43,444 nt of DNA, from contig JBFMCP010000027.1 of assembly GCA_040754455.1 (NCBI GenBank), positions 1 through 43,444 on the forward strand. Direction: 5' to 3'. The stretch is from Nitrospirota bacterium (GTDB lineage Bacteria; Nitrospirota; Thermodesulfovibrionia; Thermodesulfovibrionales; Dissulfurispiraceae). Positions 35,601 to 38,600 of this stretch are shown here, in pieces (within the stretch, counting starts at the first letter, position 1; every line of letters starts with the position of its first letter). Made by a program: the position numbers.

Positions 35601-38600
35601 GTAATCAGGACAAAGTGGTGAATGAGCGACTCCATATCACTCAAGACCCTGTCCTTCGGCGGAAGGGTGAACTTCGGGGCATCAGGAGCTATGATCGGTC
35701 CCTTCGGCATCTGCTCAAGGCACTGTTTGATGATGCGGTTGGACTGCTTGAGCTCTTCCATCCTGCAGAGATAGCGGTCATAGACATCGCCGTTCTTCCC
35801 TACGGGAACATCGAACTCCACCTTGTCGTAGGCATCGTAGGGTGCGACCTTCCTTATATCATAGGGCACACCCGATCCTCTCAACGTGGGACCGGTCAGC
35901 CCCCAGTTGATCGCATCCTCAGCGCTGATGACGCCGATTCCTTTTGTCCTTTGCAGCCAGATTCTATTTTCGTTAAGTAAGGTTTCGTATTGCTCTTCGA
36001 TGATCTTGGGATATTTTTCGGTAAAGTCGTAGAGCTTATCGATGAACTCCTGACTCACATCGTTCCGCACGCCGCCGATCCTCGGGTAGCTTACGGTGAG
36101 CCGGGCGCCGCAGGTCATCTCGAACAGATCGAGGAGCTGCTCTCTGTCCCTGAAGGAATAGAGAAAGAGGGTCATGGCGCCGATATCGAGGGCATGCGTT
36201 GCAATGCCAATGATATGGCTGCTGATCCTCGTCATCTCACACATAATCGTTCTGATGTATTTGGCTCTTTCGGGTACCTCGATACCGAAGAGCTTCTCGA
36301 CAGCAACACAATAGCCGACATTGTTCGACATGCTCGAGATGTAATCCAGACGGTCGGTCAGCGGCAGTGCCGAGGCATACGTTCTGTCTTCAGCCAGTTT
36401 CTCAACTCCCCTATGCAGGTATCCCACATAAGGCGTGCACTTTTTGATGGTCTCTCCCTCGAGATCGAGCACGAGCCGGAGCACGCCGTGCGTTGCCGGG
36501 TGCTGCGGCCCCATGCTGACGGTCATTTCTCTTGATTTCAGTCCGTTTCCGTTGGTCGCCTCTGCCATTTACCTAACCTCGTATCCTTTATTCTTTTCAG
36601 CTATTGCGATGACGTCCTTGAACCCTTTCCATTCCATCTCTCCGAGATCGCTCTTGAGCGGGTAGTCCTTGCGCAGGGGATGCCCTTCCCAATCCTCGGG
36701 CAGCAGGATCCTCCTCGGATCAGGATGACCATTGAAGACCACGCCGAGCAGGTCATAGCACTCTCTCTCGTGCCAGTTTGCCCCTGCCCATATATCGACG
36801 ACGCTGTCGATCGTGCAGTCATCCTCAGGGACCTCTGCCTTGATCCTTATCATATGCCCATGTCGCATTGAATAAAGGTGATACACCACTTCAAACCTCG
36901 GCTCTTTCTTGCCGAGGTAGTCGACACCGCCGAGGTCTTCCAGGAAGTTGAAGTACAGTTCGGGCGTCTCGTAGAGAAACCGCATCATCTCTTTGATTCT
37001 ATCCTTCTTGACCGTTACCGATACCTGACCGCGGAATTCTCTTATCTCTTTTACCTCCGTCGGGTACCTGTCCTTTATCTTCTCTGCAATCTCTTTTGGA
37101 TCCATTGCCTTCCTCGATGTAGGTCCGCCTTAGGCGGACCGAAATGTTAGCGCCATCTGCTCCACTTAAAGTGCTCTTTCTTTATCTTCTCCTGCAGCTT
37201 GATGATACCTTCCAGGAGCGCTTCAGGCCTCGGCGGACATCCGGGGACATATACGTCCACCGGCAGGAACGTATCCACGCCCTGAACAGTGCTGTAGGAG
37301 TTGAATATGCCTCCGCTGTTAGCGCAGCTGCCCATAGAGATAACATAGCGCGGCTCGGGCATCTGGTCATACACCCTTCGTACGATAGGCGCCATCTTCT
37401 TGGTTACCGTGCCGGCGATGATCACGAAGTCAGCCTGTCGCGGCGAGCCTCTGAAGATAATGCCCAATCTATCCAAATCATAGTGTGACGATCCCGTCGT
37501 CATCATTTCAATGGCGCATCAGGCCAGGCCGAAGGTCATCGGCCACAATGACGACATTCTGCCCCAGTTGACCAGCTTATCGAAGCTCGCGATAAGCGTG
37601 TTGGCGCCGGGGATAACCCTCAGTCCCTTCTCTATCTCAACAACTTCCGAGTCAGTGTGGGGAGTGGTTATGATATCGGTTGTCATAGACTGTTCACCTC
37701 CTTATTTTTGCGTTATTGCGTTTATTGCGTTGTGAGTTATCGCGAAAAAAGGAAAGTCGCTACAACGCTCAACGCTATAACTCTAAAACGCTTTAGTCCC
37801 ATTTAAATGCTTCTTTTCTCCATGCATAGAGATAGCCCACCACAAGCATGGCGATAAAGAGCATCATTTCGACCAGGGCGTACAGGCCGATCTTGTTATA
37901 TACCAGCGCCCAGGGATACAGGAACACGGCTTCCACATCGAAGATGACGAAGAGCATGGCGATGATGTAGAACTTGACGCTGAACCTGATCCGCGGTTCT
38001 CCTACCGGAGGGTTTCCTGATTCATAGGGCATGAGCTTTTCGTCGTACGGCCTCCTGATCCTGAAGAGTCCGCCGATGAGAAGGGCGCCTGCACCGAAGG
38101 CTGCTGCGATTACCATGAAAATCAGAATGGGAAGGTATTCGGTAGGAACGTAACTGCCAGGGGTCATCGGGTTCATAGTTACCTCGATTCAAAGTGGTTT
38201 TTTACGCACCAAACTCTCTTTTATAACTTACGATATAAAAAAAAGTCAAGCCAACTTAAAAAAAACTTATAAGCCTGCGCGCAGAGCACAATTCCGACAA
38301 AAAGTATTGAATTACACTAGGAATTCGCTTCTCAGCACGTTCTTAGGCACACAAATCTTTTTATAATTTAAATTACCAGCTCTTGTCAAGCTGACAAATT
38401 AAAACCGTTAATAACACTAAGGTAATGAGCTGTTTTGAAAGAGCAATAATTGGAGAGCAGATGCCGACACCCGAAGCGAACCGTTACTATACTTCCCACC
38501 TTCGATTGATGTTATGATACTATCCTGGTGAAACAGACACTATGAGTATTCTCGCAGCTATTGTTAGAAAGAAAGCCGAGCGCGTAGCACACGCAAAGTG

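Follow-up and report, generated by a model that had tools for sequence, protein, structure and literature searches.

The nuoB gene of the Nitrospirota bacterium analysed here, which encodes a subunit of complex I, is very probably a selenoprotein gene in which an in-frame UGA at codon 56 is translated as selenocysteine (Sec), such that a full NuoB of 179 residues would be made. Standard gene calling cuts the gene into pieces of 55 and 119 codons (calls g02315 and g02314), and the proposal of an earlier note that both calls are one nuoB joined through the TGA is borne out: NF005012 matches the read-through protein with 256.5 bits (cut-off 116), whereas the halves scored separately reach 25.3 and 199 bits. 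It also attains 246 bits on TIGR01957 (cut-off 142.7) and 107 bits on PF01058 (cut-off 27). The reading of this codon as Sec is supported by the Sec machinery of the genome, a site at which TGA is the only stop codon found, frozen codons in a downstream hairpin, covariation and a link with selA.

The features discussed lie within the window, by which we mean the whole stretch of 43,444 nucleotides that was analysed, and are collected in Table 1. Translated on the minus strand, nuoB is one frame and the TGA is its sole internal stop. A Shine-Dalgarno sequence is found upstream of the start codon; in the sequence read directly, nothing like it stands before the internal ATGs (codons 61-62). Across 34 distinct TGA sequences the amino acids upstream of the TGA are kept while the synonymous codons vary, with minority codons at Ser-10 in 23/34, at Pro-7 in 22/34 and at Gly-3 in 17/34 (numbered before the TGA). 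Both sides of the TGA are under constraint at the level of the protein.

Table 1. Position of nuoB, its proposed Sec codon and associated features in the window.
Feature	Position	Strand	Remarks
nuoA-B-C-D-E-F-G-H-I-J-K-L-M-N operon, 14 genes	23625..38176	-	NCBIfam Nuo matches
nuoB, 179 codons read through UGA56	37147..37686	-	single frame; NF005012, TIGR01957 and PF01058 matches
nuoB stop TAA	37147-37149	-	
nuoB start ATG	37684-37686	-	
Shine-Dalgarno AAGGAGG	37697..37703	-	10 nt upstream of nuoB ATG; read from sequence
In-frame UGA, proposed Sec codon, residue 56	37519..37521	-	aligns with first Cys of tandem N2 pair
Cys57, second of tandem pair, kept	37516..37518	-	
Cys121, third N2 ligand position (MGSCA), kept	37324..37326	-	spacing fits solved-chain offsets
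Cys150, fourth N2 ligand position (PGCPP), kept	37237..37239	-	
SECIS-like hairpin, stem UGACGA/UCGUCA, loop CGGGA	37486..37502	-	
Possible extended lower stem	37479..37513	-	inferred from folds of related loci (e.g. L055, L058, L063-L065)

Alignment to solved NDUFS7 chains places the TGA on the first C of the motif FGLACCA(V/I)EMM, and the alignment offsets make residue 56 the counterpart of residue 85 in the Y. lipolytica chain, 45 in T. thermophilus Nqo6 and 63 in E. coli NuoB. In the set of four Cys that bind Fe-S cluster N2, three are present (C57, C121 and C150) and the first of the adjacent pair is the UGA; this agrees with the earlier placement of a Sec codon at the first of two adjacent cysteines with the three remaining Cys kept. 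The ligand role of the tandem pair is stated in PMC8042128, where N2 is held by four Cys of NDUFS7, among them the strained tandem pair C85/C86. A UGA at the first ligand position makes this nuoB a variant, and not a non-member, of the NuoB/Nqo6/NDUFS7 family.

The gene is situated between nuoA and nuoC, and the operon is as it had been described, the 13 other nuo genes being intact open frames with NCBIfam Nuo matches. The claim that it is the only nuoB stands for the NuoB of complex I, in a genome rated 100% complete, with the nuance that contig C40 holds a second NuoB-like match (126.8 bits). We rejected this match as a spare NuoB, its CxxC being of the hydrogenase small-subunit type. The C40 gene sits at a contig end.

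The genome encodes a tRNA-Sec with anticodon UCA, selB (376 bits), selA (626 bits) and two selD genes. At least five selenoprotein genes other than nuoB contain TGA, and one TGA each is found in the two selD genes, in fdhA, in the gene of a second molybdopterin enzyme and in mvhD. A genome-wide reassignment of TGA was considered and rejected because this codon closes 903 of the 2492 open frames that are 250 codons or longer. Also present is a selC*-type tRNA-Cys of 91-95 nt with anticodon GCA, which the tRNA-Sec model matches at 58.1 bits and which has a selD gene 5 kb away. PMC5389517 describes this selC* class of tRNA-Cys for Nitrospirae, Thermodesulfobacteria and delta-proteobacteria, and reports that a member with a UCA anticodon decodes UGA as Cys in E. 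coli. TGA NuoB is found in the same groups.

The 68 genomes of the family gave 95 NuoB matches. A single TGA occurs in 22 of them and no other stop in any, and all 22 TGAs are at the same codon as UGA56 of the window. One family genome with the TGA form, G020, is closed and measures 2.37 Mb. The earlier note had counted 16 TGA forms among the 30 best loci of the family, a figure that was not reproduced, TGA being found here in two of the best 30. When one genome per species was scanned at the DNA level for a pattern that allowed TGA, TAA, TAG or TGG at the site, at least 119 stretches matched; in all 80 loci inspected among them the site is TGA, never TAA, TAG or TGG, and these loci belong to several phyla. 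From such sequence comparisons, the TGA together with its hairpin appears to be kept in more than 100 species. Neither Thermodesulfatator nor Caldimicrobium, both named in the earlier note, appears in the titles of the 80 scan loci listed, of at least 119 stretches. In a sample of 401 Nitrospirota genomes, the best 150 NuoB rows are without a stop, and 537 further rows lie beyond these; the earlier count of 33 TGA forms among 150 was not reproduced.

One clade holds 19 rows of Sec-type nuoB. Nested in it is the Cys-type locus L044, which retains the full hairpin, as would be expected after a recent change from Sec to Cys. A selA gene was matched in 19/19 family genomes with a TGA nuoB, and the eight family genomes without a selA match have no TGA form, a co-occurrence that is statistically weak, given that 60 of the 68 genomes have selA and that kin are not independent. 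From other phyla, four of five TGA-carrying genomes have selA; a genome of 1.6 Mb titled Udaeobacter has a TGA nuoB with a weak hairpin and lacks a selA match.

The short hairpin about 20 nt past the UGA, previously described as kept in TGA loci, is indeed present in all 22 of those from the family. With the U of UGA numbered 1, the stem of the window's hairpin is formed by +20 to +25 and +31 to +36 and the loop by +26 to +30. The same 6-bp stem is found in 21 of the 22 loci, and in the remaining one (L057) another stem, also of 6 bp without mismatch, begins one nucleotide later. The stem codons ACG, ACG, TCG and TCA show no variant (0/34 each) among the 34 distinct TGA sequences that belong to the window's peptide class, whereas in Cys-type sequences with the identical peptide the same four codons vary in 5/8, 4/8, 4/8 and 3/8. 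The synonymous sites of the hairpin are frozen only where the site codon is TGA. The stem may extend downwards through the pairing of CAUUG (+9 to +13) with CUAUG (+39 to +43) and of UG (+17 to +18) with CA (+37 to +38); in the window this possible lower stem has one U-U mismatch. Codons 12-13 show little variation among TGA sequences.

The 80 scan loci fall into 20 peptide classes with differing hairpin sequences, all of which begin at +20 or +21. In 19 loci of Desulfobacterota type the helix is 89.7% paired, as against 14-53% with slid partners. Pair 21-39 is GC in nine of them, CG in eight and AU in one, pair 24-36 is CG in 13, UA in four and UG in one, and the covariation score was attained by 0/500 shuffles. 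This version of the hairpin thus carries compensatory changes in its pairs.

We rely on synonymous-site conservation and covariation because fold-energy tests gave little signal. At 6 bp and about -6 kcal/mol, the hairpin of the window is a short one. The fold of the 76 nt after the UGA has z = -0.68, with 46/200 shuffles at least equally stable, and 24% of the synonymous recodings of the window sequence fold equally stably. When all distinct sequences are taken, 19/78 TGA forms versus 3/48 Cys forms are among the best 5% of their own recodings, a modest excess of TGA forms in a test that gives no signal for the window's own class. Three of the eight Cys genes with the same peptide keep the hairpin (L044, L047 and L086), and some Cys genes that encode Ala-Ala-Gly-Ala-Ala fold more stably at the hairpin site (L026, L027 and L039). 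A search of Rfam with positions 37300-37700, up to an E of 10, gave three matches at chance level and none to a SECIS family. Bacterial SECIS elements are diverse and are not known to have a general model.

Since the genome is metagenome-derived and split over 92 contigs, the TGA might be thought to be an error of sequencing or assembly, or a mutation at the level of the strain, possibilities to which we give practically no weight. X4 and X5, contigs assembled from independent public runs of two further studies, span positions 37100-37750 with three differences each, none of which is at 37519-37521, and the TGA is kept in both. It is also found in 21 further family loci and in 80 loci of other species, and the assembly-error reading is refuted for practical purposes. 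No RNA run is listed as containing the nuoB stretch. It is very unlikely, too, that the TGA is a real stop which leaves nuoB as a pseudogene or as two pieces, and complex I inactive or without a normal N2 site. In favour of a real stop, standard gene calling splits the gene, and the best 120 full-length relatives in the protein database have Cys (119) or Gly (one, P0010) at the site, with no U or X and no annotated Sec form among them, so that annotation pipelines do not read it through. However, the only stop found at the site is TGA, always at the same codon and never TAA or TAG, the constraint on the protein extends over both of its sides, and the internal ATGs are without a Shine-Dalgarno motif. 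A split would moreover take two of the four ligands from the genome's only complex I, whose other 13 genes are intact, and the TGA form persists over the 19-row Sec clade and several phyla.

Another explanation is that the UGA is decoded as cysteine, or as a mixture of Sec and Cys, in which case recoding would yield an ordinary four-Cys NuoB. The Cys could be brought by a Sec-like tRNA-Cys or, under selenium scarcity, by tRNA-Sec charged with Cys. The selC*-type tRNA of this genome, close to selD and with a Cys anticodon, belongs to a class that shares its groups with TGA NuoB and includes the UCA member that reads UGA as Cys, all of which favours such decoding; its own anticodon GCA, however, reads UGC/UGU and not UGA, and a normal tRNA-Sec(UCA), selA and selD are retained. 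The same protein could be had free of cost from a plain Cys codon, and yet the TGA and the hairpin appear to persist across those many species. We consider cysteine decoding improbable.

For the insertion of Sec, the reading that we prefer, we propose that, during translation of the nuo mRNA, SelB carrying Sec-tRNA(Sec) would bind the hairpin that begins 20 nt away from the U of UGA56, and that Sec would be delivered at this codon to give full-length NuoB. The actual insertion of Sec at residue 56 is inferred. In the assembled complex I, Sec56 would replace the first of the two adjacent cysteines and, together with Cys57, Cys121 and Cys150, hold the [4Fe-4S] cluster N2, the last one before quinone, such that one of its four ligands would be a selenolate. 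The selenium of Sec56 would then bind N2, and it may alter the redox or proton-linked behaviour of the cluster in this menaquinone-using anaerobe.

A broader and more tentative proposal, which we regard as possible but rather doubtful, is that more than 100 anaerobic species of several phyla have a complex I with a selenolate ligand of N2, placed next to the quinone site at that position of the strained tandem pair which is the more mobile, and that either N2 is retuned or ligand protonation is irrelevant to coupling. The pKa of selenocysteine is much lower than that of cysteine. A tandem cysteine ligand is said to protonate and to be released upon reduction of N2; given the low pKa of Sec, such a complex I could not use ligand protonation and release in the way proposed for tandem cysteines. 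If the proposal is true, the potential of N2 and its pH dependence would be retuned to suit either low-potential menaquinone or reverse electron flow; alternatively, protonation of the first tandem ligand would not matter for coupling, and nature would have provided a 77Se-addressable probe of the last electron-transfer step.

N2 and its adjacent-Cys pair are the meeting point of electron transfer and quinone chemistry, and what they contribute to energy coupling is a matter of long debate. A selenolate-ligated [4Fe-4S] cluster would be a rare natural case and a handle for spectroscopy and mutation, with Sec and Cys forms occurring in sister species. We found no selenoprotein NuoB in searchable papers or catalogues, a search outside of which Haft & Tolstoy 2025 lies; in the literature searched, no other subunit of complex I is described as a selenoprotein, and this NuoB would be the first. 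For annotation, complex I looks broken in many genomes of Nitrospirota, Thermodesulfobacteriota and other anaerobes because gene callers split TGA-type nuoB.

Cys-type NuoB/Nqo6/NDUFS7 (PSST) shares with the gene of the window its family models, its place in the operon, identical flanks and the three ligand cysteines. The difference is in the first tandem ligand, encoded by UGC/UGU there and here by UGA with a downstream hairpin, such that Se would replace S. SelB/SECIS genes of the fdhA/fdhF type show the same arrangement, in which the in-frame UGA precedes, by a short and fixed interval, a hairpin whose apical loop is rich in G; at the same distance in this genome the loops read G27 G28 C29 in fdhA, G27 G28 A29 in mvhD and C26 G27 G28 G29 A30 in nuoB. 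The nuoB stem has 6 bp versus 7-9 bp in fdhA and mvhD and, unlike their hairpins, lies wholly inside highly conserved coding sequence.

The [NiFeSe] hydrogenases, which we take to be relatives of the NuoB/NuoD module, likewise have Sec in place of a metal-ligand Cys, in the same wider enzyme lineage and in anaerobes, and read-through NuoB weakly matches hydrogenase small-subunit models, including NF045520. Their Sec, bound to Ni according to a 2026 review (PMC13188914), is in the large subunit, the counterpart of NuoD, whereas the Sec of NuoB, the counterpart of the small subunit, would bind iron of a [4Fe-4S] cluster and would entail no hydrogenase chemistry. The same review lists predicted Fe-S-binding selenoproteins, namely NF005503 with UxxC, CopZ-type 2Fe-2S proteins with GxUC or CU, HgcB, and MvhD/VhuD with CxxU. 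In these, as proposed for NuoB, Sec is at or beside a cluster-ligand Cys, adjacent U-C or C-U pairs included; none of those listed is a subunit of complex I, and in this NuoB would differ from them all.

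An ordinary ORF listing splits nuoB into pieces of 55 and 119 codons; however, both lie in one frame broken only by a TGA, and the read-through product scores 256.5 bits against NF005012 (cut-off 116), with the separate pieces reaching 25.3 and 199 bits. The same product scores 246 bits against TIGR01957 and 107 bits against PF01058, both far above the cut-offs. The frame and the NF005012 score thus bear out the earlier note's proposal of a single nuoB read through the TGA at residue 56 of 179. A strong Shine-Dalgarno sequence, AAGGAGG, lies upstream of the nuoB ATG, and none was found upstream of the internal ATGs at codons 61-62. 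Among solved structures, NDUFS7/PSST chains rank first (E about 1e-65), and in the alignments with them the TGA faces the first C of FGLACCAVEMM. Provided that no gap precedes the site, and the three alignments show none, the offsets place codon 56 at residue 85 in the Yarrowia chain, at 45 in Thermus Nqo6 and at 63 in E. coli NuoB. According to the available text of PMC8042128, four NDUFS7 cysteines ligate cluster N2; within the tandem pair, C85 has the greater mobility and lies near the NDUFS2 tyrosine that binds quinone. The alignments and this source agree with the earlier claim that the first tandem position is an N2 ligand, and the second tandem cysteine and the two later conserved ones are indeed present, as Cys57, Cys121 and Cys150.

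Features of the nuoB locus and of the associated selenocysteine genes (positions in the window unless a contig is named)
Feature	Position	Strand	Remarks
nuoB, 179 codons + TAA stop	37147-37686	minus	single reading frame
in-frame TGA, codon 56	37519-37521	minus	sole break of the nuoB frame
hairpin	37486-37502	minus	stem UGACGA/UCGUCA, loop CGGGA
nuoA-N operon, 14 genes	23625-38176	minus	Nuo model matches
selC*-like tRNA, 91-95 nt	C21:54199-54289 = L002:1497-1591	minus	tRNA-Sec model 58.1 bits, above cut-off
selD	C21:48405-49331		in-frame TGA at about codon 11 of the match
selD	C37:23899-24813		in-frame TGA at about codon 11 of the match

The remaining 13 nuo frames are open and all match Nuo models. 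The 41 nt that separate the nuoB stop from the nuoC start contain an 8-bp perfect inverted repeat whose loop is 3 nt long, GGUCCGCC-UAA-GGCGGACC (37122-37140, minus strand). The genome, in 92 contigs and rated 100% complete, has one other NuoB-like match, at the very start of contig C40 (C40:134-655, plus strand; locus L024; 126.8 bits on NF005012). We rejected it as a second complex I NuoB because a CxxC motif (DAGSCNGCE) of the hydrogenase small-subunit type replaces the tandem pair; therefore the window's nuoB is the only one found for complex I, and in that sense its description as the only nuoB of the genome stands. As MqnC is present (503.8 bits) and MenA gave no match in this genome, the quinone is likely menaquinone made by the futalosine route.

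The organism is able to read UGA as selenocysteine (Sec): its genome has a tRNA-Sec with anticodon UCA, selB (376 bits) and selA (626 bits). Each of the two selD genes carries one in-frame TGA, so that this genome encodes selenophosphate synthetase as a selenoprotein in two copies; one TGA each also occurs in fdhA, in mvhD and in a second molybdopterin enzyme. A genome-wide reassignment of TGA was ruled out, since TGA terminates 903 of 2492 open frames of at least 250 codons. We consider it highly probable that nuoB is a SelB/SECIS-decoded selenoprotein form, in which Sec would be inserted at UGA56 by way of SelB and the SECIS-like hairpin and Sec56 would take the place of the first tandem ligand on N2. 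Decoding of this UGA as cysteine is improbable. The genome does contain a tRNA that fits the selC* tRNA-Cys class, known from Nitrospirae, Thermodesulfobacteria and delta-proteobacteria in the accessible portion of PMC5389517; however, ARAGORN identifies it as a tRNA-Cys whose GCA anticodon does not decode UGA. This tRNA gene lies about 5 kb from a TGA-carrying selD, and the groups in which the class is known are the same that carry TGA forms of NuoB.

Less probable still in our estimation is a true stop, leaving nuoB split or dead. NuoB is present in 61 of the 68 genomes of the family Dissulfurispiraceae; 22 of the 95 family matches (19 genomes) have exactly one TGA, at an identical codon position in all 22, and no other stop occurs among the 95. 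An assembly error is hardly credible, as contigs from the runs of two other studies cover nuoB with three differences, none of them at the TGA. A DNA pattern scan of one genome per species, with TGA, TAA, TAG or TGG allowed at the site, found at least 119 stretches, and all 80 loci inspected among them carry TGA. These 80 are mostly labelled Nitrospirota/Thermodesulfovibrionales and 'Deltaproteobacteria'/Thermodesulfobacteriota (Syntrophaceae, Syntrophorhabdus, Thermodesulfobacteriaceae and Desulfobacterales), with two Chloroflexota, one Bacillota, one Ca. Tharpella and one Udaeobacter. Within the family, three genomes (G001, G030, G067) have two separate nuoB genes with TGA in both, and seven (G005, G052, G058, G059, G063-G065) combine one TGA form with a Cys form. 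The Cys copy belongs to a distant NuoB clade (SCCY[IV]E or SCCFVE) in six of these seven; that of G005 is a CCGIEMM form near the window's type, and G059 has an additional CCAIEMM copy.

A hairpin follows the TGA in both selD genes, fdhA, the second molybdoenzyme and mvhD. With the U of UGA numbered 1, the apical loop sits at one and the same distance in fdhA (G27 G28 C29), mvhD (G27 G28 A29) and nuoB (C26 G27 G28 G29 A30), and 4-6 nt nearer to the TGA in both selD genes and in the second molybdoenzyme. By energy, the nuoB hairpin is unimpressive: about -6 kcal/mol, z = -0.68 for the 76-nt fold, and equally stable folding in 24% of synonymous recodings; among all distinct sequences, only 19 of 78 TGA forms, versus 3 of 48 Cys forms, rank within the top 5% of their recodings. 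It is conservation, not energy, that is telling. Every one of the 22 TGA loci entered the locus comparison, together with 48 of the family's 73 Cys-type matches. The stem is identical to the window's in 21 of the 22; the remaining locus, L057, whose peptide is MMAAGAAHY, forms another perfect 6-bp stem that begins one nucleotide further on. Across 34 distinct TGA sequences for the same 13-letter peptide, the four degenerate stem codons (ACG, ACG, TCG, TCA) show 0/34 variants each, and other four-fold codons 15-23/34 minority codons. Among eight Cys-type sequences with the identical peptide, these codons vary in 5, 4, 4 and 3, and three (L044, L047, L086) keep the whole stem. The 80 scan loci comprise 20 peptide classes with differing hairpin sequences, every class having its 5' arm begin at +20 or +21. 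In 19 Desulfobacterota-type loci, 89.7% of the cells of helix 21-27/33-39 are paired, versus 14-53% with slid partners, pairs 21-39 (GC 9, CG 8, AU 1) and 24-36 (CG 13, UA 4, UG 1) vary, and none of 500 shuffles reached the covariation score. A hairpin at the site is not limited to TGA forms: the Ala-Ala-Gly-Ala-Ala Cys genes L026, L027 and L039 fold stably there.

L044, L047 and L086, the nuoB loci of G053, G043 and G040, have TGC at the site together with the complete TGA-form hairpin; L047 and L086 come from genus g11, where selA went unmatched in five of ten genomes. A DNA tree was built with the Sec codon and hairpin columns removed; in it, a single group of 20 rows contains 19 of the 22 Sec rows, L044 lies inside a Sec clade of seven rows (six Sec, one Cys; support 97), and at least five Sec/Cys changes are needed, three of them forced by well-supported branches. 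Because of this nesting and these changes, the Cys forms that retain a relic hairpin have the look of recent reversions from Sec to Cys. selA was found in 60 of the 68 family genomes and in all 19 with a TGA form; the eight without a match, one rated 98% complete, have Cys forms only or no NuoB. This co-occurrence is consistent but weak, as kin are not independent. Outside the phylum, four of five tested TGA-carrying genomes have selA. The exception, a 1.6-Mb genome labelled Candidatus Udaeobacter (G436), which may be an incomplete bin or a real exception, has TGA at the NuoB site (L167) with the weakest hairpin of the set.

Selenium at this position could possibly retune the N2 potential or its pH dependence, for menaquinone or reverse flow, ease a strained ligand geometry, or protect against oxidative damage. 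We found no Sec-NuoB in the accessible parts of the 2026 review PMC13188914, of the BSepDB main text and supplement, or of deep-Sep, nor in the retrievable full-text literature that mentions selenocysteine or selenoproteome along with NuoB, 'quinone oxidoreductase subunit B' or NDUFS7; an earlier description elsewhere is possible. In a collection of 5.8 billion proteins, the best 120 full-length relatives have 119 Cys and one Gly at the site, and no U or X, so annotation pipelines evidently split the TGA forms. A full-length NuoB from a Nitrospirae MAG (P0010, NCBI, 173 aa, 86% identity to the window's) reads FGLAGC; its Gly may be a TGA translated under a Gly-reading code, or a real Gly codon. 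The closest known systems are the ordinary Cys-type NuoB, the predicted Fe-S-binding selenoproteins tabulated in the available part of PMC13188914, and the [NiFeSe] hydrogenases. In the last of these, Ni is bound by a Sec of the NuoD counterpart, whereas the Sec of the window is predicted in NuoB.
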